Below, one piece after another: positions 2,040 to 23,331 of a DNA stretch of 29,645 bases; the first letter of the stretch is position 1; each line of letters begins with the position of its first letter. Source of the stretch: a virus (taxonomy: Duplodnaviria > Caudoviricetes); IMG/VR virus record IMGVR_UViG_3300024187_000019, positions 1-29,645 of that record; one strand, written 5' to 3'. A program made the translations under genes and the position numbers. A model generated the notes under the pieces. The model searched no databases. It had not been told where the DNA came from and saw only the letters and a list, made by a program, of their open reading frames with translations.

Positions 2040-3977
2040 ATGACGATCCAAAAACTAATCGGCCGCGCCGACCTTGAGATCAAGGGATTCGACGAGGCAT
2101 CGCACACGATCAAGGGCATGGCGACTACACCAGGCCCCGACCGTACAGGCGACATTATCGAGCCGCTAGGGGCCAAGTTCGCCAAAGAGATTCCGCTATT
2201 TCTCTATCACGACTCCAGGCTTCAGGTTGGAACGGTGAAGCTGGGGCCGGCGAACAAAAGCGGCGTTCCATTCGAAGCGACCCTACCTAACGTCGTCGAG
2301 GCTGGCGCACTGAAGACCAGGGTGGAAGAAGCATGGCATATGTTGAAGTACGGTCTGTTGAAGACTGTCTCTGTCGGGTTTATTTCGATAGGCGACAGCG
2401 TCGAAAGGCTCAAGTCAGGCGGGCTTCGCTGGCTTGAAACTGAGATATTGGAACTGTCACTTGTGCCGGTTCCGATGAATCCTGAAGCAGAAATTTCTTA
2501 CATCAAGTCAATCGACGAAGCGCAGCCGGCCCCGTCGGGTCAACGCTCGCCCGTCGTGCGCTTGGGTATTCCTCCCGCTGTTGCGGGAAAAACTTCCCCA
2601 ACTACGCAAGGAACTACCATGACAACGAATCAGGAACACATCGCCGCTCTCGAGGCGAAACGCTCCGCTAGTGCGGCGCGGATACAGGAAATCATGAGCA
2701 AGTCGGCCGAGGAAGGCCGGACCCTGGACGATGCCGAGGCCAAGGAATATGACGAGCTCAAGGCCGAAGTGAAGTCGGTCGACGGACATTTGGTCAGAGC
2801 CAAGGAGACGCAAGACCTGATGATTACAAAGGCCACGCCGGTCAAGCCCGAGGCCGGGACGGATCCGGAAGTTGCTGACAAGACCCGCAATGGCGTCGTG
2901 ACGTGGGGCAAGTCAAACCTGGCTCCCGGCATCCGCTTTACCCGCTTTGCTCTGTGCGTTGCGAACGCCAAGGGCAATCTGATGCAGGCGGAAATCCTGT
3001 CGCGTCGGTTCAATGACACGACGCCGGAAGTCAACCTGGCGATGAAGGCAGCGGTTGCGGCCGGCACGACGCAAGACGCGACCTGGGCCTCCCCGCTGGT
3101 GCAACTGCAGGAAATGGCTTCGGAGTTCGTCGAATTCCTGCGTCCGCAAACCTTGCTGGGCCGTATTCCCGGCCTGCGTCGGGTGCCGTTCAACATCAAG
3201 TTTACCCGGCAGACCGCGGGGACTACGGGGACGTTCGTTGGCGAGGGTTTGCCGAAGCCGCTAGGCAAGATGGACTTCGAACTCCTGAGCCTGCCGTTCG
3301 CCAAGGCCGCGACTATCATCGTCATGACGGAAGAACTGGTCCGCTTTTCGAATCCGAGCGCGGAAATGCTGGCTCGGGATGATCTGGCCGCGGGCATTGC
3401 CCAATATCTCGACAAGCGTTTCATCGACCCGACCTATGCCGGCGTCACAAACGTTAGTCCGGCGTCGATCACGCATGGGGTTACTCCGATTACGTCATCG
3501 GGTAATACCATTGCGTTGATCTCGGATACGGTCGAGGCCGCGGTCCGGTCATTCATCACGGCCAATCTCGGCCTTGGTGGACTGGTCTGGATCATGTCTC
3601 CGGGTACTGCTCTGTCCCTGTCCTTCCGCCGCACGACCCAGGACATTTTCGCCTTTCCTGGTCTTGGCCCCAACGGCGGGACGTTCATGGGCTATCCGGT
3701 CATCACGAGCAACAACGTGCTGTCGGCCGGTTCGCCTGGCGAGGGTCAGGTCATTCTGATGGACCCGAGCGAAATCCTGCTTGCGGATGATGGTGGGGTG
3801 TCGATTGATATGTCGACGGAAGCATCCCTGCAGATGGACGGCGCCCCGAGCAATCCGGCAACGTCTACCGTGAGTATGTTCCAGTCGAATATGATCGCTC
3901 TGAGGGCCGAGCGGTACATCTACTGGATGAAGCGCCGCGATGCAGCGGTTGCGGTGATCCAGAACGTCGACTGGTAG
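2040..3977 (+). CDS. Fused HK97-family prohead protease and major capsid protein (645 aa)
   Basis: RBS GGTAAGGAA before ATG 2040; protease motifs DRTGDIIEP, FLYHD, TVSVGF, LELSLVPVPMNPEA; linker; coiled-coil delta-like domain; HK97-fold motifs FVGEG.PKP, GTFMGYPVITS, SMFQSNMIALRAER. Confidence 0.92.
   Translation: MTIQKLIGRADLEIKGFDEASHTIKGMATTPGPDRTGDIIEPLGAKFAKEIPLFLYHDSRLQVGTVKLGPANKSGVPFEATLPNVVEAGALKTRVEEAWHMLKYGLLKTVSVGFISIGDSVERLKSGGLRWLETEILELSLVPVPMNPEAEISYIKSIDEAQPAPSGQRSPVVRLGIPPAVAGKTSPTTQGTTMTTNQEHIAALEAKRSASAARIQEIMSKSAEEGRTLDDAEAKEYDELKAEVKSVDGHLVRAKETQDLMITKATPVKPEAGTDPEVADKTRNGVVTWGKSNLAPGIRFTRFALCVANAKGNLMQAEILSRRFNDTTPEVNLAMKAAVAAGTTQDATWASPLVQLQEMASEFVEFLRPQTLLGRIPGLRRVPFNIKFTRQTAGTTGTFVGEGLPKPLGKMDFELLSLPFAKAATIIVMTEELVRFSNPSAEMLARDDLAAGIAQYLDKRFIDPTYAGVTNVSPASITHGVTPITSSGNTIALISDTVEAAVRSFITANLGLGGLVWIMSPGTALSLSFRRTTQDIFAFPGLGPNGGTFMGYPVITSNNVLSAGSPGEGQVILMDPSEILLADDGGVSIDMSTEASLQMDGAPSNPATSTVSMFQSNMIALRAERYIYWMKRRDAAVAVIQNVDW
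2608..2621 (+). promoter_or_regulatory. Putative internal RBS and in-frame ATG (2619) for a protease-less capsid isoform
   Basis: AAGGAA at 2608-2613, 5 nt upstream of ATG 2619; 2619-2040=579 (in frame); lies at the linker/delta-domain boundary. Confidence 0.6.
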
Positions 3978-3985
3978 TAAAACCG

Positions 3986-4016
3986 GGCCGCTCGCTCACA
4001 AGGCGGGCGGCCTTTT
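3986..4016 (+). terminator. Intrinsic terminator-like hairpin after the capsid gene
   Basis: GGCCGCTCGC(T)...(G)GCGGGCGGCC stem with G-U wobbles, followed by TTTT, just after the TAG TAA double stop. Confidence 0.6.
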
Positions 4017-4027
4017 CGTGAGGATTT

Positions 4028-4228
4028 ATGAAACGCAAGATGATTTCAGATGGGAAGTTCACGCATGAGGGTAAGGCTTTGAACTCGGGCGATGAATTCG
4101 AAGCAGACGAACAAGAGGCCGCGGACTTGGCTAGCCGGCCGATCCGGCTCGCGCATTACAAAACGGAAGATTCGTCCAATGGGGCGAAGCGGCAGTATCG
4201 CCGCAGAGACATGACGGCCGAAAAGTAA
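4028..4228 (+). CDS. Small hypothetical head-associated protein (66 aa)
   Basis: RBS GAGGA; sits between capsid and portal; GDEFEA and basic YRRRDM tail; TAAATG junction to portal. Confidence 0.7.
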   Translation: MKRKMISDGKFTHEGKALNSGDEFEADEQEAADLASRPIRLAHYKTEDSSNGAKRQYRRRDMTAEK

Positions 4229-5629: not shown

Positions 5630-6176
5630 GCAACTTGCGGAACTGCTGGCGAAGGTAAAGCCTCGCCGCGGCAAGGATGGGAAGGACGGCAGGGACGGCC
5701 GCAACGGGCTTGACGGTATTGATGGGAAGGACGGGGCGCCGGGACTCCCTGGCGGGCCGCGAGGGCCTGCGGGGAAGGACGGCGATCCTGGTCGGGATGC
5801 CTACGAACTTGCGCTCGAGCAAGGATTCGCTGGTGATCGTCAGGCATGGGTCAAGTCGCTGCACGGCAAGCAGGGTGAGCCGGGACGGAATGGTAAGGAC
5901 GGTCTTCAAGGACCAAGGGGAGAGCAGGGTCCGAAGGGCGACAAAGGCGACATTGGCCCGATACCGCATCATGAATGGGAAGGCACGAAACTACGCTTTG
6001 AGCAATTCCCCGGTAAATGGGGAAAGTTTGTCGACCTCCAAGGTCCGCGGGGGCCTGATGGTGCTGGCAGGACTGGACACGGAATGCCGATCAATATTGG
6101 GGGCGGAACTTACGATCCCTCTCCGTCTGCTACTGCAGCAGTACAGAACACTTATTTTCCTAGCGGTTGGAACTGA
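5616..6176 (+). CDS. Collagen-like (Gly-X-Y) protein
   Basis: Runs GKDGKDGRDGRNG.. and GPRGEQGPKGDKG; AYELALEQGFAG..AWVKSL interruption typical of phage collagen-like proteins; GTG start overlaps the portal end. Confidence 0.8.
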   Translation: MLNPEQLAELLAKVKPRRGKDGKDGRDGRNGLDGIDGKDGAPGLPGGPRGPAGKDGDPGRDAYELALEQGFAGDRQAWVKSLHGKQGEPGRNGKDGLQGPRGEQGPKGDKGDIGPIPHHEWEGTKLRFEQFPGKWGKFVDLQGPRGPDGAGRTGHGMPINIGGGTYDPSPSATAAVQNTYFPSGWN

Positions 6177-6186
6177 AAGGACGGTC

Positions 6187-6390
6187 ATGGCTGACGTAAC
6201 GATTTATCGAGATCCGGCAGCGGTCAATGTAATAGTTGTCGACGGCGTTCCGCCTGTTGACCAATCCGCCCTCGTGGCGAGCCTGCAAGCTGCCATTGCT
6301 GGAGTCAGGGCGCGCGCGCAGGCTCGCAAGGACGCAGACGCGGCAAAGGTTGACGGGCAGGACGATCTGGACGCGCTCGCGGGGCTCTGA
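6187..6390 (+). CDS. Small hypothetical protein (67 aa): beta-type N-terminal motif plus coiled-coil
   Basis: RBS GAAAGGA before ATG 6187 (real start of track ORF 5677..6390); TGATG coupling to the next gene. Confidence 0.7.
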   Translation: MADVTIYRDPAAVNVIVVDGVPPVDQSALVASLQAAIAGVRARAQARKDADAAKVDGQDDLDALAGL

Positions 6391-6695
6391 TGCAGACCGT
6401 CACCTTTTACAAGCCGGCAGGGCTAACGGTTGAGGTACTGGATCGCGTCGCGGTTCCTCCTCCGGTCGATATTCAACAGGATTCTCCGGTTCCTGATGTC
6501 GACTGGCTCGAGGGCGGTCCGGGGACTTGGCCGATACTCAGCCACTATTCAAGCCCGACCGGGAAGGTACTGACTCTAGCGGCAGTTGGAAGTCTGCCGC
6601 CTGGAGTGACGGTAGTCGGCGGCGGCTTTGCCTACGACGGGACAGGTTCATTCCGCACATCTGTCGTGGTTAATTGGGCAATCGCGGCGCACTGA
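6390..6695 (+). CDS. Hypothetical protein with putative Ig/cadherin-like (He_PIG-like) domain
   Basis: TGATG coupling at both ends; beta-rich; SPTGKVLTL..GSLPPGVT resembles the LP.G motif of putative Ig domains. Confidence 0.6.
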   Translation: MQTVTFYKPAGLTVEVLDRVAVPPPVDIQQDSPVPDVDWLEGGPGTWPILSHYSSPTGKVLTLAAVGSLPPGVTVVGGGFAYDGTGSFRTSVVVNWAIAAH

Positions 6696-8236
6696 TGCAG
6701 ACAAGCGGCCAAGCCAAGACGCACGCGGCGATCGTTCTCCCGATTCCGCCTGCAGGTTCGCCTGATGCCTTAGCCATCTATGACGGCCCTGCAGACGTCA
6801 AGAGGTCGCCGCCTGGCGGAATTTCGTCATCGTTCCTCTATCAGACTTGGTTGCCGTGGAAGAACAACAAGACCGGTGACTGGATCGATGCGGCAGGAGT
6901 GGCGCAAGGCACGACGCCATTCGCGCAATTCTCGCTTGCGGCGGGAGCGATGGGTAATGCTGGCGTAGACGTCACCGTGCTGGTCAAGAAAAGTACCAGC
7001 ATCGTATTGAGGGGCGTCGGTGCCGCCACAGTTGTATGTAATGCGCGCGAATCAGGCAATGGTCCTGTGATTGCTTATGAGACGCCGAGTGGCCTGGTCG
7101 TCTCAAAATGTACCGCTGACGCGGAATGCAATCCGTCGACTGCCTACGAAATGGGCGCGAATCCGACCTGGACCGTCAGTTCGGCGAATGGCGTATATCT
7201 GTCGTTTCCAAATCCGCCCGTTGGATGGACCAAGGCAAATCTGATTCTGCCGCTGAATAAGGTCTGGACCGGCGGCAAGATCAACGTCTACCAATTCGCG
7301 TGGGGCGGCATTTCGTACCCCGGTCCAGCGGATACGCTGTCGCTAAAGGGCGACCCGCGCGTTTTTCTTGAGACGGAATCGTTTGAAGACCTGCCGCCAT
7401 TCATCGCGGCGATGGTCTTTGGTACGGCCAATAGCCCAGACACTTACAAGCAGAGGACCGTTGTCGATACGCCGGCCGGACGTGCTCTGCAAATCACATT
7501 CGATCCGCACGTTAACGGAGCCCTGACCGCGGCGATTCCGTTCCCAAATGGCGATGAGGCCGACGAGGCGGCGTGGGAGTTTGAAGCACGTTTCCTGCCC
7601 GACATGCTCACAGGGCTGACGCAGGGCTTCAAGTTCTTTGCTGGGGCTAGCTCATCCACCAAGCCAGATGATGCCTACTATGCGAATACCTGGAAAGTTC
7701 AGGTCGGTCGCGCCGGAACGCTACTCGCTGGTAATGGTGGCGCGAAGTCTCATGGTAACGATGGCTGGTCGACCCGCTTTGATATGTTCGCGCCTCCTGG
7801 TCCGGATCATCCCCTGGCGGGCCACTTCGCGCCGATGCAGTATTGCTACTGGCCGGAGCAATCGAGTTTCTACGGCGATGCGCATTTGTGGAATGGGTCC
7901 GGATTCACGCCTTACGTCGACGAGTGGCACCGCTACTCGATGCGGCTGAAATGCAACACCTGTGTTGGAACGAACTATTCCAAGGATGCGGAACTGGACT
8001 GTTATCTCGATGGCGTTCTGGCTCACCGCTGGCGCGGATTTTATCTTCGGACCACTGACGATCCGCTCATCATGCACGCGCCCAATAATCTTGGGCCTGA
8101 TGGCAAGACGTATGACGTCAAGTCGCAGCTGAGGATCGGCCGCATTTGGCTTAACACATATCACGGCGGGCTAGACTATCCTGCCAGCCGTTGCTCGTTC
8201 CAGGTCCGCAATCTTCGTGTGGCGAAATTCAAATGA
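6695..8236 (+). CDS. Putative virion-associated carbohydrate-active protein with C-terminal polysaccharide lyase PL14-like domain
   Basis: Start 6695 by TGATG coupling; N-terminal W..GDWIDAAGVAQG..PFA module; C-terminal GFK..G, GNGG...GNDGWSTR, W.RY.MRLKCNT, YLDGVL, IWLNTYHGG pattern like PL14 jelly-roll lyases. Confidence 0.65.
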   Translation: MQTSGQAKTHAAIVLPIPPAGSPDALAIYDGPADVKRSPPGGISSSFLYQTWLPWKNNKTGDWIDAAGVAQGTTPFAQFSLAAGAMGNAGVDVTVLVKKSTSIVLRGVGAATVVCNARESGNGPVIAYETPSGLVVSKCTADAECNPSTAYEMGANPTWTVSSANGVYLSFPNPPVGWTKANLILPLNKVWTGGKINVYQFAWGGISYPGPADTLSLKGDPRVFLETESFEDLPPFIAAMVFGTANSPDTYKQRTVVDTPAGRALQITFDPHVNGALTAAIPFPNGDEADEAAWEFEARFLPDMLTGLTQGFKFFAGASSSTKPDDAYYANTWKVQVGRAGTLLAGNGGAKSHGNDGWSTRFDMFAPPGPDHPLAGHFAPMQYCYWPEQSSFYGDAHLWNGSGFTPYVDEWHRYSMRLKCNTCVGTNYSKDAELDCYLDGVLAHRWRGFYLRTTDDPLIMHAPNNLGPDGKTYDVKSQLRIGRIWLNTYHGGLDYPASRCSFQVRNLRVAKFK

Positions 8237-9444
8237 TACAAACGAGCGCAAACGCGAAAACACACGCGGCGACTGCAGGCATTCCGGCATGGCTTAATGG
8301 CGTGCCGGTGTTGGGATGGAAGGCGGTGCCGGGCAGTCTCATGAAGGACATGGACTACACGCCGCAGCTAAACGCGGGATTGTCTGCCGATAACAAAGGG
8401 ACACCGGGCGCGGGTTTCAACTTCTACGGTAGTCCGATTTCTGGCTTTTTCGGCTACGGGTCGTGGATGCTGCGCGCGAGCGATTCAATGGTGCTCGGCA
8501 TGGGCGGCGGCGGCGCCGGCGCCTGGGCGGGCAACGACATCCGGGGCCTGCCATTGCTCGATGACGCGCCGCGCTGGAGAACCTTGGTCGATCCGTCGCC
8601 GGCTTCGAACGTATGGGGATCGCGCTACCAGCAAGTCCCAGCGACAGGCCCGCATTCGCGGATGAAAGATGGCGTAACGCCGAACGCGCGGCATACGTCT
8701 TGGATGCCTCAATTCGACGACGTCGCGAATCGCGTCTATTTGATGGGCTGTGCGCTGGTGTGGGAGAGTGATAGCGATCCGCCATATCCGGACAAACTAA
8801 ACGTCGACAGCATCTCGCTTGACGATAAGCAATGGACAGGCCCCGGCGCGCATCCGAATCTTCTTCACACATGGGGCTATCAAGGATTTTGTGTTTGTTC
8901 CGACCGGACGAAACGCCGCGCGTATATTTTTGGCGGATCGACGCTCGACGTCTTCGACTGGCCGACGAACACGATTTCGACGCTGGTTAGTTCCGGTCCT
9001 ACGCAATGGGATCGCGGCTCCGCAGCCGTAGATCCGGTCAACAATCTCATTTTGCACATCGGCTGGTTCACGACGACACCGAATCAGCCGACCGTCATCA
9101 ATCTTGCGAATGGCGCGCTGACGCAGGCGGTGCTGACCGGAACGTATGCGAGCGCGATCATTGCCGGCGCCGGCCCCTACGGTGCGGGAATGTGCTACTG
9201 CCCAGATCTCGGCTGCTTCCTATACTTTCCGGACGACGGCTTCGTCTACGCGATCACGAAGACCGACCTCGCACACTGGGCGGTCGATCGTCTGGTGACG
9301 ACGGGAGTCGGACCCGCGCCGCACATTTCCGGCAATGCCGGGACGCCACAGGTATGGAGCCGATTCCAATACGTCCCGGCGCTCAAGGGCGTTGTCGTCG
9401 GTCCGGTCTGGAATCAGCCGGCGTTTTTCTTGCGGATCGTGTAA
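8233..9444 (+). CDS. Putative beta-propeller (Kelch/galactose-oxidase-like) protein
   Basis: ATGA coupling at 8233; GGGG..WAGND, DG.TPNARHT, repeated YIFGG / AVDPVNN / YCPDLG blade-like units. Confidence 0.6.
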   Translation: MIQTSANAKTHAATAGIPAWLNGVPVLGWKAVPGSLMKDMDYTPQLNAGLSADNKGTPGAGFNFYGSPISGFFGYGSWMLRASDSMVLGMGGGGAGAWAGNDIRGLPLLDDAPRWRTLVDPSPASNVWGSRYQQVPATGPHSRMKDGVTPNARHTSWMPQFDDVANRVYLMGCALVWESDSDPPYPDKLNVDSISLDDKQWTGPGAHPNLLHTWGYQGFCVCSDRTKRRAYIFGGSTLDVFDWPTNTISTLVSSGPTQWDRGSAAVDPVNNLILHIGWFTTTPNQPTVINLANGALTQAVLTGTYASAIIAGAGPYGAGMCYCPDLGCFLYFPDDGFVYAITKTDLAHWAVDRLVTTGVGPAPHISGNAGTPQVWSRFQYVPALKGVVVGPVWNQPAFFLRIV

Positions 9445-10212
9445 ATGGCGATCGCGCGCGTCAGTTCCACGTCCGCCGACGTTGGCTTTGCAGCCAGCAT
9501 AACCTTCGGTGCTTTTGACGCGGGGAGCGCAGCGGGACGCACGGTGTTTGGATTCTGGACGAACGACTCGACCGCCGAGCACCTGACTTCGTCAACGTAC
9601 AACGGCGTTTCCTGCACGCTGGGCACGGAAGAAGTTTTCTCTTCGACATGTCTGAGCAATGTTTCCCGCCTGATAGGCGATGCCAACATAGCGACAGGCA
9701 CGCATAACTTCGTCGGGAACTACACGGACGGGAGTCATCATCCAGGCGGGATCGTCGTTTCGTATTCCGGCGTCAGTGCGATCAGTATCGTCGCACAAGG
9801 CCACGGCGACACTGGCGGCACGCCAGCAGGGCCGATCACGCTGACGGGGACGGGCTTCAACTCCGGCGACCTGGCCGTGATGCTGATGTCTTTCCACGCA
9901 GGTGCGTCGACGACCTATACGGATTCGCATGGCACGACTTTCAGAAGTGTGGGCGCGACCACGTTCCGTTATATCGGCATCGAACTGACGGCAAGCGGAT
10001 CAAGCGTAACCATCGACGGCACGCCAAGCGTGCGCGCTGCGTGGACGGGCTACATGTTCCGGCTGCAACCGCTTGCCAGCGGCACGGTGCGCCGGCGCAC
10101 GCTGGGCCAGCGCATCGGATCGCGTCAAGGCGGATTTGTGCGCCTAGCTTCGGGGCTCCTTGCGCCGCGGCGTTTTGCTTCTAACGAATCATCCTTTTTG
10201 GAGGCCGCATAA
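9445..10212 (+). CDS. Hypothetical Ser/Thr/Gly-rich beta protein, probable virion decoration protein
   Basis: TAAATG junctions at both ends; MAIA.. start, TYNGVS and VVSYSGV motifs seen in phage structural beta proteins; Arg-rich C-terminal tail. Confidence 0.65.
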   Translation: MAIARVSSTSADVGFAASITFGAFDAGSAAGRTVFGFWTNDSTAEHLTSSTYNGVSCTLGTEEVFSSTCLSNVSRLIGDANIATGTHNFVGNYTDGSHHPGGIVVSYSGVSAISIVAQGHGDTGGTPAGPITLTGTGFNSGDLAVMLMSFHAGASTTYTDSHGTTFRSVGATTFRYIGIELTASGSSVTIDGTPSVRAAWTGYMFRLQPLASGTVRRRTLGQRIGSRQGGFVRLASGLLAPRRFASNESSFLEAA

Positions 10213-11802
10213 ATGGAAGGCTTCCTAAAGCTAAGCACCGCGGTCAATATCACGGTGCTGATGATCGACAGCAGCGATCACGTCACCGGCAAGACCGGGC
10301 TTTCCGCCGGGCTTACGATCTATGCGACGAAGGCGGCAGGGACGCCGGCAACGATCACGCCGACCGTGACCGAGCTGGATTCGACCAACGTCAAGGGCGT
10401 CTATAAGCTGGCCTTGACGACCGGCCACACCGATACGCTGGGCGAACTGCTGCTGCACATTACAGCGACCGGCGCTGACCCGACCGATATAAAGTGGCAG
10501 GTCTCGACCTACCTGCCGGGCGAGGCGGCGACGCTTCAGGCTGACCAAGCGGTGAATGCTACGAAGATCGGCGGCACGACGCAGACGGGTCGAGATATTG
10601 GCGCGAGCGTTCTGCTTTCAGCTGGAACCGGCGCGGGGCAACTGGACTTCACTTCCGGAGTGGTCAAGGCGAACGCAACGCAATGGCTCGGCGGGACCAT
10701 TCCTGCAGTCAATGTAACTGGCGTCCCGATTATCGACCTTAAGTACACGCTCGGCACGATCTCTCCTGCGACGGCTGGCTCGGTGCGGGCCGATTCCGTT
10801 ACAGGAGCAGTTGGGTCTGTGACTGGCGCTGTGGGGAGCGTGACCGGAAACGTCGGCGGCAACGTGGTTGGCTCAGTGGCGAGCGTTACTGGCAATGTCG
10901 GCGGCAACGTCGTGGGCTCTGTCGCTAGTGTTACCGCTCGAGTCACGGCAAACACAGACCAGCTTGCCGGACAGACCGTGACTGCCGCGGCTGGAGTGAC
11001 CTTCCCGAGTTCAGTAGCCAGCCCGACGAATATCACGGCCGGCACGATTACGACTGCGACGAATCTGACGAACGCTCCGACTTCTGGAGACTTCACGGCA
11101 GCCATGAAGACGTCCCTAAACGCCGCGACGCCGGCTAGTGTTGTCGGCGCCGTTGGGTCTGTCACTGGAAACGTGGGCGGCAACGTAACAGGGTCAGTGG
11201 GCAGCGTGGCGACTGGTGGTATCGCTGCAGCCAGTTTCGCCGCGGGCGCCATCGATGCAGCGGCTATTGCAACAGATGCTCTTGGCGCGCTGGAGTTGGC
11301 AGCTGGAGCAGCATCGGAAATCGCAACCGCAGTCCGGACGGAACTTGCTCCCGAGCTCGGGCGGGTCGATGTGGCGGTAAGCACCAGACTTGCGACGGCT
11401 GGATACACAGCGCCGGACAATGCGGACATTTTGCTTATCAAGGCCAAGACTGACAACCTGCCAGCGAGTCCTGCAGCTGTTTCGGATATTCCGACCACGG
11501 CAATCGTAGCCGATGCGGTTTGGGACGAGGCCATAGCGGGCCATCTTGGGGCTGGCTCTACTGGAGCGGCCCTGAACGGCGCCGGGGCCGCTGGAAATCC
11601 GTGGATTTCGGTGCTTGAGGGGACATTAAACGCGGGTGACTTGCTGCGGATTACGGCTGGAGTCGCCGCGGGCAAGACTTCGATCACGCCTTCGGGCGAC
11701 GGCAACGCTACGGTTGTATTCCGCGACGTGTCTGACGACTCCGATATTGTCACGGCCAACATGACCGGCAGTGAACGGACGGGAGTAACGGTGGCGCCAT
11801 GA
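10213..11802 (+). CDS. Thr/Gly/Ala/Val-rich repeat protein, probable head fibre or decoration protein
   Basis: N-terminal DHVTGKTGL...GVYKL module, VGSVTGNVGGNV repeats, C-terminal ADAVWDEA and LLR..A.VAAGK..FRD modules. Confidence 0.7.
   Translation: MEGFLKLSTAVNITVLMIDSSDHVTGKTGLSAGLTIYATKAAGTPATITPTVTELDSTNVKGVYKLALTTGHTDTLGELLLHITATGADPTDIKWQVSTYLPGEAATLQADQAVNATKIGGTTQTGRDIGASVLLSAGTGAGQLDFTSGVVKANATQWLGGTIPAVNVTGVPIIDLKYTLGTISPATAGSVRADSVTGAVGSVTGAVGSVTGNVGGNVVGSVASVTGNVGGNVVGSVASVTARVTANTDQLAGQTVTAAAGVTFPSSVASPTNITAGTITTATNLTNAPTSGDFTAAMKTSLNAATPASVVGAVGSVTGNVGGNVTGSVGSVATGGIAAASFAAGAIDAAAIATDALGALELAAGAASEIATAVRTELAPELGRVDVAVSTRLATAGYTAPDNADILLIKAKTDNLPASPAAVSDIPTTAIVADAVWDEAIAGHLGAGSTGAALNGAGAAGNPWISVLEGTLNAGDLLRITAGVAAGKTSITPSGDGNATVVFRDVSDDSDIVTANMTGSERTGVTVAP
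10840..10929 (+). repeat. Tandem 45-nt (15 aa VTGNVGGNVVGSVAS) repeat x2, with a degenerate third copy near 11161
   Basis: Identical peptide with synonymous DNA differences; flanked by VTGAVGS heptads. Confidence 0.85.
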
Positions 11803-12686
11803 AAACACAGATCGACCATCTTGCGGATTCCGTCTTTGTTGCGGTCAAAGGATTCCTGACGGCCGAACTCGACCGAAGACTGGCCGCATTGCCTGTGCCG
11901 AAGGATGGCGCTCCCGGTAAGGACGCGGACCTGACAGCGGTGGAAACAGAGATTGCCGAAATTGAAAAGGGGCTGGCCGACGTCAGAAGCATTGCGGTAT
12001 CGCCGGAGCACGTCGAAACGATGATTAAGTCGGCGATCGAGTCATTGCCAAAGCCTAAGGATGGTGATCCGGGGAAGGACGGCCGGGACGGAGTTGATGG
12101 AAAAGACGGCGCTCCTGGCGTTGACGGCAAAACAGGATTCGACGGCCTGCCTGGTCAGGACGGTGTCGACGGAAAAGACGGCAAGGATGGAATGGATGGC
12201 GAGCCGGGCCGGGACGGGCTGAGGGTCGATGTTCTTGATTCGATCGACGAGGAAACCAGCTACCAGCGGGGGACTCATGCTTGTTACCGGGGCGGGGTGA
12301 TTCGTGCCAAGCGCAGGACTGATCCGCTGATGGTGCAGCCGGATCTGGACAAAGCCGGATGGCAAGTCGTCTTGGATGGGATCGACGAAACCATACCGGA
12401 AATAAGCGCCGATTCCAGAGTCGTTACGCTATCGATCAAGCGCACAAGCGGAGTTGTGACGAAGCGCGGCTTTGCCGTGCCGACCATGATTTACCGCGGC
12501 ATTTGGAAGGAAGGCGAATACCAGTTGGGCGACGTGACGACTTACGGCGGGCAGCTGTGGCATTGCCAGCAGGAAACGAAGACGCAACCGGGAGTCTCGC
12601 CGGACTGGAAACTCTGTGTTCGCAAGGGCATGGATGGGAAGGACGCTGGAGAACGTAAGCAGCCGCAAGTCGTTGCGCTTAAGTGA
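11799..12686 (+). CDS. Collagen-like head-associated protein with C-terminal carbohydrate-binding-like module
   Basis: ATGA coupling; PKDG/GKDG Gly-X-Y runs; C-terminal MIYRGIWKEG.Y..GDVTTYGGQLWHC...PG..W.LCVRKG.DGKD. Confidence 0.8.
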   Translation: MKTQIDHLADSVFVAVKGFLTAELDRRLAALPVPKDGAPGKDADLTAVETEIAEIEKGLADVRSIAVSPEHVETMIKSAIESLPKPKDGDPGKDGRDGVDGKDGAPGVDGKTGFDGLPGQDGVDGKDGKDGMDGEPGRDGLRVDVLDSIDEETSYQRGTHACYRGGVIRAKRRTDPLMVQPDLDKAGWQVVLDGIDETIPEISADSRVVTLSIKRTSGVVTKRGFAVPTMIYRGIWKEGEYQLGDVTTYGGQLWHCQQETKTQPGVSPDWKLCVRKGMDGKDAGERKQPQVVALK

Positions 12687-13315
12687 TGTGGTCTGTCCCG
12701 CGGATGTGGCCGGGGGAGACTTGTGCCGTTCTAGCGTCCGGCTCGAGCATGACGCAGGAGGTTGCGGACACGGTTAGAGCGGCCGGCATACGGTCTATAG
12801 CGGTCAATACGACGTTCAAACGCGCGCCCCGGGCCGATATGGTCTACGCCGCGGACGAGGCATGGTGGAAGTATCACAAGGCCGAACTGATGTTGTATGC
12901 CGGCCTGAAGGTAATGTGTACGCCGACGGCGATGCCGAATATGTGCGCCCCGTTCCCCGGAATCCACGTTCTGAGGAATACCGGCCGCGATGGGTTCGAT
13001 CCGAACCCCGCCCATATCCGGACCGGGAACAATAGTGGGTATCAGGCGATTCACGTTGCCGTCCATGCTGGCTGTAGTCGAGTCTTGTTGTGCGGATTCG
13101 ATATGCATGGCGGGAACTGGCACGGCAGACACCCGGAGCCATTGAGAGAACACGGCAACGACTATTCAGCCTGGTTCCCGATGTTTGAGACGTTGCACAA
13201 GGAATTACAGGAACGGGGCGTCGAAGTTCTGAACTGCACTCCCCGAAGCGCCTTGAAGTGCTTTCCGATGGCCGATTTGAAGGACGTTCTTGCGTGCTCT
13301 GTGCTTGCTGCGTGA
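12686..13315 (+). CDS. Putative glycosyltransferase, Maf/GT29-GT42 (sialyltransferase-like) fold
   Basis: TGATG coupling; VLASGSSM, IAVN, NSGYQAIH.A..G..RVLLCGFDM, VLNCTP motifs. Confidence 0.6.
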   Translation: MWSVPRMWPGETCAVLASGSSMTQEVADTVRAAGIRSIAVNTTFKRAPRADMVYAADEAWWKYHKAELMLYAGLKVMCTPTAMPNMCAPFPGIHVLRNTGRDGFDPNPAHIRTGNNSGYQAIHVAVHAGCSRVLLCGFDMHGGNWHGRHPEPLREHGNDYSAWFPMFETLHKELQERGVEVLNCTPRSALKCFPMADLKDVLACSVLAA

Positions 13316-14042
13316 ACGGACGGTATACCGCAGGCAGGCATTTGTGACGGGCCTTCAGCGGGCGGGTTATGAACTTGTAAACGCCATTCCCCGACCTGAG
13401 CCGCGGGACGTTCTCTGCATTTGGAATCGGTATGCCGGGAATCATGAGCAGGCCAGGAAATTTGAGTCTGCCGGGGCAAAGGTTCTGGTTGCGGAGAACG
13501 GATACATACCGGATCTTGCTGGTGGTAAGTGGCTGTCCCTGGCCTTGAATCATCATGCCGGTGCTGGGTCTTGGAAACACGGAGGACCCGAGCGTTGGGA
13601 TTATCTTGGCGTCCGGTTTGGGGAGTGGCGGCACGTCAATAACGGCGAGACGATCGTTCTCGGACAGCGGGGAATCGGGGAGCCGGGGATAGCGTCTCCT
13701 GTCGGTTGGGCTGAGTCTGTTGTCCGGAAGGTCAGGGGAAGGATCAGACCTCACCCAGGGACGAACAAGAATATCGTCCCGCTGGAACAGGACTTAGCCA
13801 AGGCGTCTGGTGTTGTCACTTGGGCGAGCTCGGCGGCATTGCGGGCGTTGTTACATGGGATTCCCGTTTGGTACGCCATGCCGAAATGGATAGGCGCCCC
13901 GGCTTGCAAGCCTCTCGGCCAATGGCCCGAGCCGCTGCGCGACGATCAGGCAAGGCTTGATATGTTCCGCCGACTGGCCTGGGCACAGTGGAGACTTGAC
14001 GAGATCGAGTCCGGCGAAGCCTTTTCGTACCTTCTGCAATGA
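13290..14042 (+). CDS. Putative glycosyltransferase, KpsS/KpsC (capsule synthesis)-like
   Basis: RBS GAAGGA plus TTG; VAENGY, IRPHP, VVTWASSAALRALLHGIPV motifs. Confidence 0.65.
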   Translation: MRALCLLRERTVYRRQAFVTGLQRAGYELVNAIPRPEPRDVLCIWNRYAGNHEQARKFESAGAKVLVAENGYIPDLAGGKWLSLALNHHAGAGSWKHGGPERWDYLGVRFGEWRHVNNGETIVLGQRGIGEPGIASPVGWAESVVRKVRGRIRPHPGTNKNIVPLEQDLAKASGVVTWASSAALRALLHGIPVWYAMPKWIGAPACKPLGQWPEPLRDDQARLDMFRRLAWAQWRLDEIESGEAFSYLLQ

Positions 14043-14890
14043 GAATCCTCGTTGCCGGGAAGTCTACGAAAGGGGCGTGGCCGATTCGTGGCGAGCAGCT
14101 TGGAGAAGCCATAGGTGCGCGAGTCGTACCAAACGCGAAAGCCATTGAGGACTGCGATGTGGTCATCGTGGTCAAGCGTCCCAAGCAGGATTTGCTCGAG
14201 CGGATAAAGCACTACGGGGCGCCTATTGTTTGGGATGTGGTCGACTCCTATCCCCAGCCTGGGGCATTGGAATGGGGGAAGTCGGCCTGCCTTCACTGGC
14301 TGGCATTGGAGGTCAAGCGAATCAAGCCGATCGCCATTGTTGCGGCGACCAAGGCGATGGCGGCGGATTGTGATTTCGGTGTACCCGTTATAGCCCTCGA
14401 GCATCACGCCCGGATGCAGAAACGAATTAACCCGATCCGCAAGAATGTGGAGGCGGTCGGATATGAAGGCGATGAACGATACCTCGGAAAGTGGCAACCG
14501 TTTTTAGAGCAGGAATGCAAGCGGCGTAAGTGGCGGTTCGAGATCAACCCGAAGTCTTTAGCAGACCTGGATATTGTTGTTGCCTTGCGCGAGGCTAGGG
14601 GTTATGCGGCTACGCAATGGAAATCTAACGTCAAACTAGCGAATGCCCAGGCCTCGGGGACGCCAATCATCATGCAACGCGACGCGGGGTATATGGAAAC
14701 GGCCTCGGGTTCGGAGTGGCTGGCCGATACGGAGGCCGAAGTCCTTAAGGCGTTGGATGAAATGGCTACGCCCGACGCGAGGGACGGTTCTCCGCGGTGG
14801 CTTGCTGCCAATCGGATGCTGCCTGTTGCGCCGAAGATAGAAGACGTTGCCGACAAATATCTGCAATGGCTGCATCAGTTGAAGTTTTGA
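14039..14890 (+). CDS. Putative GT-B fold glycosyltransferase
   Basis: ATGA coupling; IVWDVVD, VGYEG, DIVVA.R, WKSNVKLANA.ASGTPII...Y.E C-terminal GT-B pattern. Confidence 0.6.
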   Translation: MRILVAGKSTKGAWPIRGEQLGEAIGARVVPNAKAIEDCDVVIVVKRPKQDLLERIKHYGAPIVWDVVDSYPQPGALEWGKSACLHWLALEVKRIKPIAIVAATKAMAADCDFGVPVIALEHHARMQKRINPIRKNVEAVGYEGDERYLGKWQPFLEQECKRRKWRFEINPKSLADLDIVVALREARGYAATQWKSNVKLANAQASGTPIIMQRDAGYMETASGSEWLADTEAEVLKALDEMATPDARDGSPRWLAANRMLPVAPKIEDVADKYLQWLHQLKF

Positions 14891-15660
14891 TTTCCGGCGA
14901 CGAGTCGTTGCAGGGCAAGGCGGCGATGGAATGCGCCGCTGTGGGCGCTGATCTCGCTGGCCTTGAAGTTGTGGTCACGAAACAATATCGGGGAAAGTCG
15001 GATTGGCTCTGCCTTTACGGGCCAGGTCATGCGCATCGTAATCTGAGCAGGATGGCGCACGTTGCCAGCGGAAGACAGGTTGCTTGCTGGGACATAGGGT
15101 ACATATCTCGTAAGGTGTACGCCCGAGTAGCGGTCGACCATAACCATCCGCAACGGCTATTCAACGAGACGCCGAACGATGGGAGCAGATGGGACGTCCA
15201 CGGAATTACGCTGCGCGACGACTACGATCCGAACGGGCATATCGTTGTTGCAGGGATGGGGCCGAAGTCCCGCGCGCATCTAGGGCTTTACGATTGGGAA
15301 CTGAAAACATTGTTTGAAGTGCAGGCAAGGTTCCCGAAAAAACGAGTCCTGTACAGACCTAAGCCTCAGGGCAGTCGTGACCCGCAGATTGCATGGACTA
15401 GTGACGGGACGAGTTCGATTGAAGATGTCTTGCGGGGCGCCAGCCTTGCGGTATGCAGGCATAGCAATGTTGCCGTGGACGCTTGTATCGCTGGAATACC
15501 TGTCGAGTGTGAGGATGGGGCTGCGCGTTGGCTGTATGCGAAAGGGAGCAATCCAGACGCAGAGTCCCGGCTGGACTTCCTGCATCGGCTGGCTTACTGG
15601 CAATGGAAAAACAATGAAATGCGAGAGGCATGGACATTCCTGCAAGCGGTCTCAAACTGA
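14866..15660 (+). CDS. Second KpsS/KpsC-like putative glycosyltransferase
   Basis: Likely start ATG 14866; WDIGY, LYRPKP, AVCRHSNVAVDACIAGIPV and C-terminal LAYWQW..E parallel to 13290..14042. Confidence 0.65.
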   Translation: MAASVEVLISGDESLQGKAAMECAAVGADLAGLEVVVTKQYRGKSDWLCLYGPGHAHRNLSRMAHVASGRQVACWDIGYISRKVYARVAVDHNHPQRLFNETPNDGSRWDVHGITLRDDYDPNGHIVVAGMGPKSRAHLGLYDWELKTLFEVQARFPKKRVLYRPKPQGSRDPQIAWTSDGTSSIEDVLRGASLAVCRHSNVAVDACIAGIPVECEDGAARWLYAKGSNPDAESRLDFLHRLAYWQWKNNEMREAWTFLQAVSN

Positions 15661-16163
15661 ACCTTGGGAGCGGTAGGCACAGTCTTGACGGCTGGTTCAA
15701 CATCGACGCCGCGGCGAATCCGAAAGCGGTTCGGCCACCTGACTTGTTGTGCGATGTGAAGTCTATTCCACTGCCTGATGCCTGTGCTTCTGAGGTCATG
15801 GCGATTCATCTATTCGAGCATTTATATCGTTGGGAGTGCGATGACACGATTGATGAATGGCGAAGGCTGCTCAGGCAAGGCGGATTGCTGACGCTGGAAA
15901 TGCCCGACTTGTTCAAGTTCTGCCGCAACATTCTGGAAGGCATACCGGGTAAGAATCATGCGGACCAGTTGGGGATGTGGGGGCTTTATGGCGATCCTCG
16001 GGACCGCGACCCGCTGATGGTCCATCGCTGGGGCTGGACGTTCATCACGATACAACCATTCCTGACCGAACACGGTTTCACAGACATTCGAGAGGACGTA
16101 ACGCAATGGCACAAGGTAGGACGGGGCGTGCGTGACTTTAGGGTGACGGCGAGGAAAGCATGA
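15630..16163 (+). CDS. Class I SAM-dependent methyltransferase
   Basis: RBS GAGG; motif I LKLNLGSG, W.NID, HLFEHL, RLLRQGGLL.LEMPD. Confidence 0.85.
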   Translation: MDIPASGLKLNLGSGRHSLDGWFNIDAAANPKAVRPPDLLCDVKSIPLPDACASEVMAIHLFEHLYRWECDDTIDEWRRLLRQGGLLTLEMPDLFKFCRNILEGIPGKNHADQLGMWGLYGDPRDRDPLMVHRWGWTFITIQPFLTEHGFTDIREDVTQWHKVGRGVRDFRVTARKA

Positions 16164-16843
16164 CCTGTCTCCGCGTCTACATCGGTCACGACTCGCGCGA
16201 GCAGAAAGCCTTTGACGTCGCGGCCAAGACTGCGCGCGCTTTCGGTTGTGATGTGATTCCACTGTACGAGGACAGACTAAGGGCATCGGGGATGCTGACT
16301 CGCCCAACGGATAGGCGCGGCGGTATGTGGGATCTGAACAGCAATGCCCCGCAGTCCACGGAGTTTGCCATCAGCCGATTCTTTGTCCCGCTACTTGCTC
16401 ATTCCGGCTGGTGTCTCTTTGCCGATGCGGATGTTGTGTTCATGGAAGACCCGCACGAACTACTGTCCATTGCCGACAACGGAAAGGCCTTGCATTGCGT
16501 CAAGCATCCTCCGTTCGATCTTGCACAAACCAAGATGGACGGGCAGATACAAACGCAGTACAGCCGGAAGCTATGGTCGAGCGTGATCTTGTGGAACGCG
16601 GACCATCCGGCTAACAAACGTTTGAACCTGATGACGCTGAACCAGTGGCCGGGTAGGGACTTGCACCGCTTCGCCTGGCTGGCCGATGACGAAATCGGAA
16701 GCCTGCCCGCGGAAGCTAATTGGCTGGTCAATATCCAGCCTAAGCCGGCGCGGCCGATCGTTGCCCATTACACGCTAGGAACTCCTGACATGATCGGCGA
16801 ATCGGCGCACTCGGATATTTGGCAGGCGGCGAGCCAGCGATGA
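16160..16843 (+). CDS. GT-A nucleotide-diphospho-sugar transferase (GT8/CDI-like)
   Basis: VYIGHDSRE, STEFAISRFFVP, LFADAD (DxD), KLWSSVILWN..HP, NWLV, HYTLGTP. Confidence 0.8.
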   Translation: MTCLRVYIGHDSREQKAFDVAAKTARAFGCDVIPLYEDRLRASGMLTRPTDRRGGMWDLNSNAPQSTEFAISRFFVPLLAHSGWCLFADADVVFMEDPHELLSIADNGKALHCVKHPPFDLAQTKMDGQIQTQYSRKLWSSVILWNADHPANKRLNLMTLNQWPGRDLHRFAWLADDEIGSLPAEANWLVNIQPKPARPIVAHYTLGTPDMIGESAHSDIWQAASQR

Positions 16844-17571
16844 CCTATCCCTACGGCAGCTGGTCCTGGGGCTATTCAATGCGTCGCCAGGAGGCGCTTG
16901 CACGCTATGGACTGAGAATCGTATCTGGCCCGGACGCAGAGCCGATTTCGCTGGAGCTCGCGCGGGCGCACCTTCGGCTAGACGTTGATGACGACAGCCC
17001 GCCATCGCACCCTGACGACTTCTGGCTGACCGAAGTAGGCATCCCCGCGGCCCGCGAGGCGTGCGAGAGCGAGCTAGGTAGGGCTATTGCCCCACAAGTT
17101 TTCGAGATCAGCCTTCGCGGCTTTCCGAACTGGTTTCCCGGCATCGAGGTCTGTTCCGTCGATGGGCTGGTTTATCCCTGGGCGATAAGCCTTCCCATGT
17201 CGCCGGTTGAGTCTATTGTTTCGGTGAAGTACATTGACGCGGACGGAAACGAACAGACATGGGATCCGGCGAATTACATTCTCGATACCTGGTCGGACGT
17301 GAACGTGATTTATACGACCACTGGCGTTAGCTGGCCCCCGACAGGCGTAGTGCCGAACGCCGTCAAGATTCGCTATGTCGCTGGGTATTCATTGCCAGAC
17401 GATAGCCCGCTTTCTTATCCTCTACCCAAAGCGATAATGGCGGCGATGCTTCTCATGCTAGGGCATTTGTACGAGAACCGCGAAGCATCGACGGATGTGA
17501 AGCTGGACGAGATTCCCCGTGGAGTATCAGCCTTGCTTGAGCGGGACAGACTCAGGTTGTCGATGGCATGA
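16840..17571 (+). CDS. Head-tail connector protein (HK97 gp6 / phiE125 gp8-like)
   Basis: ATGA coupling at 16840; EPISLELARAHLRLD, AAREACE, V.IRYVAGY, AMLLMLGHLYENRE. Confidence 0.9.
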   Translation: MTYPYGSWSWGYSMRRQEALARYGLRIVSGPDAEPISLELARAHLRLDVDDDSPPSHPDDFWLTEVGIPAAREACESELGRAIAPQVFEISLRGFPNWFPGIEVCSVDGLVYPWAISLPMSPVESIVSVKYIDADGNEQTWDPANYILDTWSDVNVIYTTTGVSWPPTGVVPNAVKIRYVAGYSLPDDSPLSYPLPKAIMAAMLLMLGHLYENREASTDVKLDEIPRGVSALLERDRLRLSMA

Positions 17572-17906
17572 GAGCAGGCAAGCTAAGGCATCGGATAGAG
17601 GTTGACGAACCGATAACGAGTCAGAACGATACGGGCGAGGAAATAGTCAACTTCATGCCGTGGCCGCGCAAGGTGTCGGCTGAGGTCCATCCTCTGACTG
17701 GCCGGGAACGGCTGCTCAGTAACGGTATTCTGGCATCGTTCGATACGCGGATTGAAGTCCGCTGGAGTCCCGAGAACGCTAGGATAGATGCTAAGTGGCG
17801 CATCCTGTTCGCAGGGATTATCTACAACATCGTGAGTGCTGAGGACGTCGACTTTGCCCATCGCCGGATTGAGATCATGGCGACGAGCGGGGCGAACGAA
17901 GGCTAA
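17568..17906 (+). CDS. Head closure/stopper protein (SPP1 gp16 / HK97 gp7-like)
   Basis: MRAGKLRHRI, V.PLTGRE, IYNI.S motifs; position after the connector. Confidence 0.9.
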   Translation: MRAGKLRHRIEVDEPITSQNDTGEEIVNFMPWPRKVSAEVHPLTGRERLLSNGILASFDTRIEVRWSPENARIDAKWRILFAGIIYNIVSAEDVDFAHRRIEIMATSGANEG

Positions 17907-18343
17907 TGCCAGTTTCTACGACAGTCAGAGTCGAGGGCTTGCGGGAACTCGGTGAGCGTATGCGGGGACTTAGCCGCGAAGTCAACCTGAAGATTGCGCG
18001 GTCATCGACTAATGCCGCGGCCCAGGTCATCAAGAAGATCGTCAAGCAAAAGGCGCCGGTCGCGCCCCCTGAAGTAACCCCGAAGATTCCCTATGGGAGC
18101 CTGCGAGATAACGTCATCGTCAAACGTATCACAAAGACCGAACTGACGTCAGAACATATCGTCACGATCCGGGGCAAGAAAAAGGATTTTTACGCGGCTC
18201 GAGTCGGAAGGCTGCAGGAGTTTGGAACAGTCAAGATGCAGGCGCATCCGTTCATGAGGCCAGCCTTTGAGCAGGGCAAGTTGCAGGCGATGGATGCGCT
18301 GGTCAAGAAGCTAAAGACCGGAATCGACAAGGCGAGCAAATGA
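17906..18343 (+). CDS. HK97 gp10-like neck/tail completion protein
   Basis: VEGLREL, K.KAPV, EFGTVKMQAHPFMRPAF. Confidence 0.9.
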   Translation: MPVSTTVRVEGLRELGERMRGLSREVNLKIARSSTNAAAQVIKKIVKQKAPVAPPEVTPKIPYGSLRDNVIVKRITKTELTSEHIVTIRGKKKDFYAARVGRLQEFGTVKMQAHPFMRPAFEQGKLQAMDALVKKLKTGIDKASK

Positions 18344-18723
18344 GCCTGGAGGCCGATCTATTCTCGGCACTGAAATCGCTGGTCGGGAATCGTATGTCGC
18401 CTGATACCTTTCCCCAACCTCCAGCCGTTCCGGTCTGGCCGGCGATTCGCTATACGTTTGTCAGCAACGTCCCGTTTGTGGACTTGCTCGGGGATGGTGA
18501 TGACGAGACCTCGGAGCCACACGTCCAGTTAGATGTAGTCGCTACATCGTTCTCCGCAGTCCGGTCGCTCAGGCTTCAGGTGATGGCGGCGATGCGGACC
18601 TTTGCCCCGCCCGCCATTCTGCAGAACACAACGAGCGAATACGACTCTGAAACGAAGACGTATCGCGAGATCATGGAATACTCTTTTTTCGGCTCGTCTG
18701 ACAGCGGCAACTCGCCGCCTTAG
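18340..18723 (+). CDS. Tail terminator protein (DUF3168-like)
   Basis: WPAIRY..VS, VQLDV.A, YDSETKTYR; position before the major tail gene; extra C-terminal SSDSGNSPP. Confidence 0.8.
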   Translation: MSLEADLFSALKSLVGNRMSPDTFPQPPAVPVWPAIRYTFVSNVPFVDLLGDGDDETSEPHVQLDVVATSFSAVRSLRLQVMAAMRTFAPPAILQNTTSEYDSETKTYREIMEYSFFGSSDSGNSPP

Positions 18724-18740
18724 CAAGTAGCCGACCACTG

Positions 18741-18764
18741 AAGCCGCCTCCGGGCGGCTTTTTT
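18741..18764 (+). terminator. Intrinsic terminator-like hairpin upstream of the major tail gene
   Basis: AAGCCGCC-TCCG-GGCGGCTT followed by TTTT. Confidence 0.75.
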
Positions 18765-18783
18765 ATTGTCGAAAGGAAATATC

Positions 18784-19440
18784 ATGGCATCAGGCCGCAG
18801 ATACAAATTCCAAGGAAGTTTTATCGGGGTACTGGTGGACTACGATGCCACTAGCCCGTCCAAAGCCATCACTGCGATCACGAAGGCGAATCCCGCCGTC
18901 GTGACATCAGCAGGTCACGGCCTCGTCGATGGCGACGTCGTGCATATCACTGGAGTCCTGGGCATGACAGAAGTGAACGGAACCTCGTTCATCGTCAATT
19001 CCCTGTCCTCCAGTACGTTCGAACTCGTCGATACCAATTCGACCGGCTACGGAACGTATGTGAGCGGCGGGCTTTTCGACGTCGCTACCTTCAGCAATTT
19101 CTGCGAACTGACCGGCTACAACCGGACCGGAGGTTCTTCGCCGGAACAGGACGCGACCTCCCTTTGCTCCGTTTCAAAAGAATACGAGATCGGTCTGCCC
19201 GACATGGGTACGACTCAGATCGACTTCAACTTCGCCCCGCAGACGGCGATTCAATTGGCCCTCAAAGCCTTCGACACGTCCAAGGAACTCATGGCGGTCA
19301 AGGTCATTCTGCCGAACAGCGGCGGGACGATGGTGCAGCTTGGCTTCGTTCAGCAGTTGAGCGAGCAGGTTGCGAATCAAGGTCTGTGGACTGGATCGGT
19401 CACGATCCGGAACACAGGTCCGCGTTATGACATCGCGTGA
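18784..19440 (+). CDS. Major tail (tube) protein with inserted E1-FCCH-like beta domain
   Basis: RBS GAAAGGA; tube motifs GG...E.DATSLCS..KEY..GLPD.G; insert 18865-19071 ITKANPAVVT..HGL.DGD.V.I.GV.GMTEVN. Confidence 0.88.
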   Translation: MASGRRYKFQGSFIGVLVDYDATSPSKAITAITKANPAVVTSAGHGLVDGDVVHITGVLGMTEVNGTSFIVNSLSSSTFELVDTNSTGYGTYVSGGLFDVATFSNFCELTGYNRTGGSSPEQDATSLCSVSKEYEIGLPDMGTTQIDFNFAPQTAIQLALKAFDTSKELMAVKVILPNSGGTMVQLGFVQQLSEQVANQGLWTGSVTIRNTGPRYDIA

Positions 19441-22756: not shown

Positions 22757-23331
22757 GTTTCAAAAACATCCGTTTCCCGGTCGACATTTCCTTTGATGCC
22801 GTTGGCGGGCCGGGATTCCTGACGAACGTTGTTCCGGTCAATAGTGGTAGAGAATTTCGGGAAGACGTCTGGGCGCTAGAACGGGGCGAATGGGAAGTAA
22901 GCCATGCCGCGAAACTGCCCAACAAATATGAACGGCTGCGCTCATTTTTCCGCGTGGTCAAGGGCAGGGCTTATAGTTTCCGATTCAAGGACTGGACGGA
23001 CTTTGTAGCCTTATCAGGAGAAGGTCTGTTCATCGACGCGGGCGACGACAGCCCTGCGACGACTAAGCAGATGGTCAAGCGTTATACCTTTGGCTCGGAG
23101 ACATTCGATCGCGTCATTACCAAGCCGATTAGCGGGTCCGTAACGACGGACGCATCGAGTCTTGACTACAACACCGGCATTGCAACGAGCGGGACATATT
23201 GGTTCGGTGAGTTCGACTGTCACGTCCGATTCGATACGGACAAGATGCTGGCCGTAACCAAGGATCGGAATCCGGCTGAAGGTCTGATTATCACCTGGGC
23301 AAGTATTCCCCTGATCGAGATCAAGGGTTGA
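22753..23331 (+). CDS. Distal tail protein, DUF2460 (GTA-like)
   Basis: RFPVDIS..AVGGP.F.T, FF....GRAYSFRFKDWTDF, R.ITKP, EFD..VRFDTD. Confidence 0.9.
   Translation: MSFKNIRFPVDISFDAVGGPGFLTNVVPVNSGREFREDVWALERGEWEVSHAAKLPNKYERLRSFFRVVKGRAYSFRFKDWTDFVALSGEGLFIDAGDDSPATTKQMVKRYTFGSETFDRVITKPISGSVTTDASSLDYNTGIATSGTYWFGEFDCHVRFDTDKMLAVTKDRNPAEGLIITWASIPLIEIKG

Follow-up and report, generated by a model that had tools for sequence, protein, structure and literature searches.

The gtrABC genes are phage-borne glycosyltransferase cassettes of serotype conversion. In mycobacteriophages, glycosylation of the virion has reportedly been described (by Freeman et al. in 2023; Che8 gp110, Corndog gp38 and Myrna), and a terminal Ser serves as the acceptor. 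The mycobacteriophage glycans are placed at the C-termini of the capsid and tail tube proteins (PMC12619734, PMC12363180). Here, we analyzed a stretch of 29,645 bases of the virus record IMGVR_UViG_3300024187_000019 (the window), which comprises a siphophage morphogenesis region, with a focus on a block of six open reading frames (ORF1 to ORF6) at 12686-16843; G1, G2, G3, G4 and G6 denote the products of the ORFs of the same number. Our data suggest that these genes probably constitute a late pathway in the cytoplasm by which the phage O-glycosylates its virion proteins, with short Ser-Pro loops as the sites. As in mycobacteriophages, the glycosyltransferases are phage-encoded and, judging from folds and hydropathy, soluble, and the capsid and tail tube proteins are predicted acceptors. 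[quoted passage not shown] The gtrABC cassettes share with this block the phage-borne glycosyltransferase genes but differ from it in two respects: none of the six proteins has a transmembrane segment, because the highest 19-residue Kyte-Doolittle mean is only 1.49, and GtrA was found in 0 of 30 related records (9 of them at least 90% complete) in searches whose controls matched in 8 of 14.

The window runs from the terminase gene through genes for a fused protease-capsid protein, the portal, accessory proteins, adaptor, head closure, gp10, tail terminator, tail tube, chaperones and tape measure to a baseplate that resembles that of gene transfer agents (DUF2460, hub, NlpC-like and Rcc01698-like proteins). 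The six ORFs lie on the + strand and fill their block without gaps, consecutive genes overlapping by 26, 4, 25, 31 and 4 nt; at the edges, the overlap is 1 nt between ORF1 and the stop of the upstream collagen-repeat gene and 4 nt between ORF6 and the start of the adaptor gene (16840). A consensus scan of positions 4000-19000 gave no promoter-like site inside the block, where the sole hairpin is a 5-bp one on the + strand, and 10 terminator-like sites in the scanned region against 13.2 expected by chance. The first-pass annotation, made from the sequence alone, had described six overlapping ORFs between a collagen-like head gene and the head-tail connector with no promoter gap, terminator or membrane anchor; ORF map, scan and hydropathy bear this out, except that for the upstream gene the collagen repeat stands, its matches are to phrog_1289 and to the C-terminal part of the fused portal family phrog_2271, and its placement in the head is presumptive. 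The ORFs are real genes because they have many database relatives (242 for ORF1, 1565 for ORF2 and 510 for ORF3) and because, of 54 informative loci, 29 have all six with the order unchanged.

The position of the block among virion genes, which the earlier annotation had proposed to survey, is conserved. We collected 92 loci anchored on G2 (80 of 137 viral matches plus 12 genome matches, duplicates kept) and scored 91, excluding L097, which has no G2 match. A virion gene of the window is matched in 78 of these, each time in the same orientation as the cassette. Of the 42 loci flanked by 6 kb or more on either side, 38 have such a match, and 31 have head genes upstream and neck or tail genes downstream; the match is lacking in L020, L021, L057 and L064. 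L020 and L021 are near-complete genomes of 54-56 kb that have the full six-gene set (G6 inverted in L020) with no match within 10 kb to the virion proteins of the window. Of 81 loci, 79 have G1. Alternatively, the block is found behind the head closure or tail tube gene, with G1 sometimes staying beside the adaptor gene. Among 29 representatives scanned, variant loci add genes for FkbM and other methyltransferases, GT9, radical SAM/SPASM and SDR proteins; the radical SAM/SPASM genes lie in or beside the cassette in about seven loci (e.g. L017 4753-5676 and L038 10662-11615). Phages of the same head type (L180, L183, L184, L192, L196 and L226) carry unrelated GT2/GT4/methyltransferase islands, one of which has a PglD-like acetyltransferase and a DegT aminotransferase; modification islands are attracted by this head family. 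Among named genomes, the nearest one that has the block is a contig of Variovorax sp. JS1663 (G2 53%), and the other matches are contigs of metagenome-assembled genomes with mixed labels.

The arrangement is not rare, and it has relatives in the cultured phages CcrColossus, D3, PAJU2, P1 and P7, all of which have a homologous G1 in blocks that are annotated as morphogenesis or lie among virion genes. G2 matches 15 cultured-phage records, all from jumbo phages of Caulobacter; in CcrColossus, gp126-131, between the tail and lysis genes, comprise G1, G2, a G4-like protein, G6, a methyltransferase and a GT9 protein. These uncharacterized phage blocks (CcrColossus gp126-131, D3 orf7, PAJU2 gp10, P1 pmgO/pmgP/pmgQ and P7 hdmB/C/D) hold partial gene sets. 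G1 matches 77 records, including D3 orf7 and PAJU2 gp10 within the head-neck genes, P7 hdmB (annotated "head morphogenesis") and P1 pmgO. Both PmgO and PmgP of P1 are members of the G1 family, as are HdmB and HdmC of P7 (L098/L099 5941-7127), and P1 pmgQ, annotated as a glycosyltransferase gene, is downstream of an annotated late promoter and C1 operator. Tandem G1-G1 pairs precede the adaptor gene in several uncultured phages (L133, L142, L146, L156 and L165). The region of the G1 match is annotated "structural protein" in GenBank for both PAJU2 and Klebsiella phage Eowyn, and G1 may be packaged in some phages.

G1 has the fold of the Maf central domain. It scores 19.4 bits against PF01973, below the gathering score of 34.6, and some relatives carry this annotation. 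D57, S117 and D139, a candidate acid-Ser-acid catalytic triad, are conserved with a spacing that matches that of Maf. Of the first-pass label "Maf/GT29-like", the Maf part holds, whereas GT29 gives way to Maf/GT42 as the closer relation. Compared with the Maf flagellin O-glycosyltransferases (PF01973), for which the chain in PDB 5MU5 has 632 residues, G1 is a stand-alone protein of 209 residues with neither flagellin nor a sugar pathway nearby. G2 has a modified GT-B fold nearest to the Kdo transferases of capsule and O-antigen synthesis. In retaining beta-Kdo transferases, (K/R)xHP is the motif that binds cytidine monophosphate (CMP; PMC12887879) and QxxxD the nucleophile motif (PMC10148158, PMC12887879). 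In 97 G2 sequences, R153 is conserved in 97% and H155 and P156 in 100%, while, as judged by sequence, the QxxxD nucleophile is absent: Q126 is followed by G at +4 (97/97) and by E at +5 in 51/97. Thus, the earlier label "KpsS-like" applies to the fold alone, as the motif with the catalytic Asp is lacking. G2 shares with GT107 (KpsC/KpsS), GT99 (WbbB) and GT140 (KrkA) the fold, the RxHP motif and a conserved Glu and Gln in similar order but is about 70 residues shorter than these enzymes; its sequence similarity to KpsS and KpsC is marginal (hhalign E 0.001-0.04). G4 matches G2 in hhalign with a probability of 99.85, has RPK where G2 has the HP motif and, in the alignment, no conserved Q; its Atlas clusters are almost all viral, and PF05159 is on 17-18% of the members of two clusters. 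We took the start of ORF4 at 14866, a GTG start at 14797 giving too long a gene. The assignments of ORF3 as GT-B and ORF5 as an S-adenosylmethionine (SAM) methyltransferase are supported, the former by Atlas predicted models of the PF13439/PF00534 clusters (template modeling score 0.75-0.80) and the latter by PF08241. In G6, D89 and D91 are invariant in 89 sequences; PF01501 is matched under the cut-off (E 0.006), and no match was found among PDB sequences.

The candidate acceptors are Ser-Pro loops in virion proteins, and these loops co-occur with the cassette (Table 1). After deduplication, Ser-Pro is present in cassette-positive versus cassette-negative loci in 43/48 versus 0/7 tail tubes, 74/83 versus 1/8 long adaptors and 35/62 versus 3/17 capsid ends; in the portal-anchored set, which was not chosen for the cassette, the capsid-end counts are 17/25 versus 2/16. 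Ser-Pro in terminase and portal does not differ between positive and negative loci. A narrower [GD]SP motif, defined after the data had been seen, gave 19/25 versus 2/16 (control, 7/25 versus 5/16). The control loci were tail-tube-anchored, portal-anchored (the best 80 of 502) or from 5 of 7 cultured adaptor matches. Loci were classified as negative if at least 9 kb followed the portal gene and none of the G1-G6 profiles was matched, short loci being excluded; a Pfam scan covered 147 of the 214 ORFs that lacked annotation in negative or undecided loci. Six loci with other glycosyltransferase or methyltransferase islands were set aside, and L197 (divergent G1) and L211 (G1 elsewhere in the record) were reclassified as positive. 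Both adaptor sites keep Ser-Pro amid hypervariable flanks, the Ser follows G or D in 100 of about 124 cases and is encoded by both Ser codon families, and Thr-Pro replaces Ser-Pro in a few phages. In the tail tube, the loop is a small insert at differing positions, and a protein that lacks the loop at one position often has it at another. The clearest single contrast is between L132, which has G1 and Ser-Pro, and the sister clade of L139, L141 and L163, which lacks the cassette and has Ala-Pro at the same site. A C-terminal acceptor of the mycobacteriophage type was rejected for the window, as the capsid protein ends in Trp and the tail tube protein in Ala; a C-terminal Ser is present in 10/32 capsid and 1/23 tail tube proteins of relatives.

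From these data, we infer enzyme activities, donor, order of steps, acceptor sites and timing as follows. The cassette would be read with the late operon. G1 would attach the first ulosonic acid from a host CMP-sugar, for which CMP-Kdo is the simplest candidate, to the Ser of G/D-S-P loops that lie in subunits of the capsid, adaptor and tail tube. G2 and G4, with their beta-Kdo transferase fold, the GT4-like G3 and G6 with its DxD motif would lengthen the glycan, which the ORF5 product would methylate and so cap. Virion glycosylation, as predicted in the first-pass annotation, gains support from the folds, the conserved place among virion genes and the loops that track the cassette. Its suggestion that the host supplies the donor sugars is consistent with the finding of a cytidylyltransferase in 0 of the 30 related records, with controls matched; the lack of sugar genes in the window was judged on an incomplete genome.

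The comparison of positive and negative loci has several limits. Before reclassification, the capsid count was 32/56 versus 4/22, and it was the motif that led us to two of these changes; other negatives may hide a G1 because a whole-record search with phrog_4603 missed that of L197. The negatives are from few lineages, at three places on the tail tube tree, and L182 has the loops and no visible cassette. On the capsid tree, four supported independent pairs all point in the expected direction, and the phylogeny-corrected test is not significant, which it cannot become with just four pairs. The last point would also fit glycosylation of the virion elsewhere, e.g. on Ser/Thr-rich fibers or accessory proteins, with the Ser-Pro loops being turn motifs, phosphorylation sites or inherited hitch-hikers, as would the presence of G1 without Ser-Pro inserts in D3 and PAJU2, the location of the CcrColossus block behind the tail genes and a Ser/Thr phosphatase gene in the same P1 operon. 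We consider this explanation unlikely, given that the Ser is retained across both codon families despite hypervariable flanks, that the loop is found at several unrelated positions and that sister tail tubes differ at this residue together with G1.

The nearest folds of G2 are those of Kdo transferases for capsule and O-antigen, GT9 heptosyltransferase-like genes are added in relatives, and P1 pmgO, pmgP and pmgQ are non-essential for plating (PMC10695390). All three would fit enzymes that act on the cytoplasmic side of the inner membrane to modify the host envelope (lipid A-core or a capsule linker), so as to mask receptors or bring about superinfection exclusion, and soluble enzymes working there would need no flippase of their own. 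The tight, co-oriented place among virion genes, the tracking of the cassette by virion-protein loops, the action of Maf on protein and the lack of GtrA in the related records make such a role improbable. Hypermodification of phage DNA bases is very improbable given the gene position in morphogenesis rather than replication, the Maf and Kdo-transferase folds and the virion loops; the base-hydroxylating partner Tet_JBP was found in 0 of the 30 related records in a search in which no control matched and which did not extend to hydroxymethylases.

In the literature covered, which is incomplete, we found no virion glycosylation in which a Maf-type enzyme initiates, beta-Kdo-fold enzymes extend and an internal Ser-Pro serves as the tag. 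Virion glycosylation is already known in mycobacteriophages; new here are the six-gene form in its entirety, the assignment of folds, the negative result for the nucleophile motif and the cultured phages named above. We speculate, with considerable doubt, that sequon-directed O-glycosylation of virions is widespread in phages of Gram-negative bacteria, with a minimal Maf enzyme adding host Kdo to (G/D)-Ser-Pro loops internal to capsid, neck and tail proteins, a new Asp-less branch of the beta-Kdo transferase fold extending it into a methylated coat similar to the lipopolysaccharide core, and P1 pmgO and pmgP as members. If the proposed glycosylation is correct, tailed phages of this head type would commonly carry it, together with an acceptor tag that can be read, and the unexplained genes P1 pmgO/P/Q, D3 orf7 and CcrColossus gp126-131 would gain a function. 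It would also imply natural protein-O-Kdo linkages, offer glyco-engineering a 209-residue protein glycosyltransferase with a short tag, and bear on the recognition of phage particles by antibodies, decoys and other phages.

Table 1. Cassette genes, neighbors and candidate acceptor sites in the window (Ser-Pro counts, cassette-positive versus cassette-negative)
Feature	Position	Strand	Evidence
Portal-associated collagen-repeat protein, upstream flank	11799..12686	+	PF01391 1e-9; phrog_1289 2e-41; C-terminal part of phrog_2271
ORF1/G1, stand-alone Maf-type catalytic domain, predicted initiating protein Ser/Thr O-glycosyltransferase	12686..13315	+	209 aa; Maf fold
ORF2/G2, trimmed GT-B, retaining beta-Kdo transferase fold; RxHP kept, QxxxD Asp absent	13290..14042	+	250 aa, TTG start
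ORF3/G3, GT4-like GT-B glycosyltransferase	14039..14890	+	283 aa; PF13524 E 0.025
ORF4/G4, G2 paralog without HP and Q motifs	14866..15660	+	264 aa; hhalign G2 versus G4
ORF5, class I SAM methyltransferase	15630..16163	+	177 aa; PF08241 8e-6, over cut-off; phrog_6636
ORF6/G6, putatively GT-A-type and GT8-like, invariant DxD (D89, D91) and H203	16160..16843	+	227 aa; phrog_28018 3e-43
Head-tail adaptor (RcGTA Rcc01688 type), two candidate acceptor loops	16840..17571	+	TIGR02215 over cut-off; 6tba 6e-20
Ser-Pro, adaptor site 1, candidate glycosylation site	16996..17001	+	57/83 versus 0/8 adaptors
Ser-Pro, adaptor site 2, candidate glycosylation site	17404..17409	+	69/83 versus 1/8 adaptors
Gly-Ser-Pro loop, major capsid protein, candidate site	3732..3737	+	Alignment; Ser-Pro in last 100 aa 17/25 versus 2/16 (portal-anchored)
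Ser-Pro insert, N-terminal part of major tail protein, candidate site	18853..18858	+	Alignments; 43/48 versus 0/7
Ser-Pro, tail terminator C-terminus, weakly tested candidate	18712..18717	+	Ser-Pro anywhere 24/46 versus 1/6
Asp-Ser-Pro, DUF2460 distal tail protein, weakly tested candidate	23050..23055	+	17/29 versus 0/3

Between the portal gene and the portal-associated collagen gene (5616-11802), the window has accessory ORFs: a second collagen ORF (5616-6176), an ORF overlapping it (5677-6390), and further proteins of 101, about 513, about 403, 255 and 529 aa that have almost no family matches; several contain G/D/N-Ser-Pro. These are probably head decoration or fiber genes. A terminator-like 9-bp hairpin with a T run lies between the tail terminator and tail tube genes (18740-18761). 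Finally, the tail tube (18784-19440) and the baseplate hub (23328-24491) have in common an E1_FCCH-like domain with 51% identity over 85 residues.
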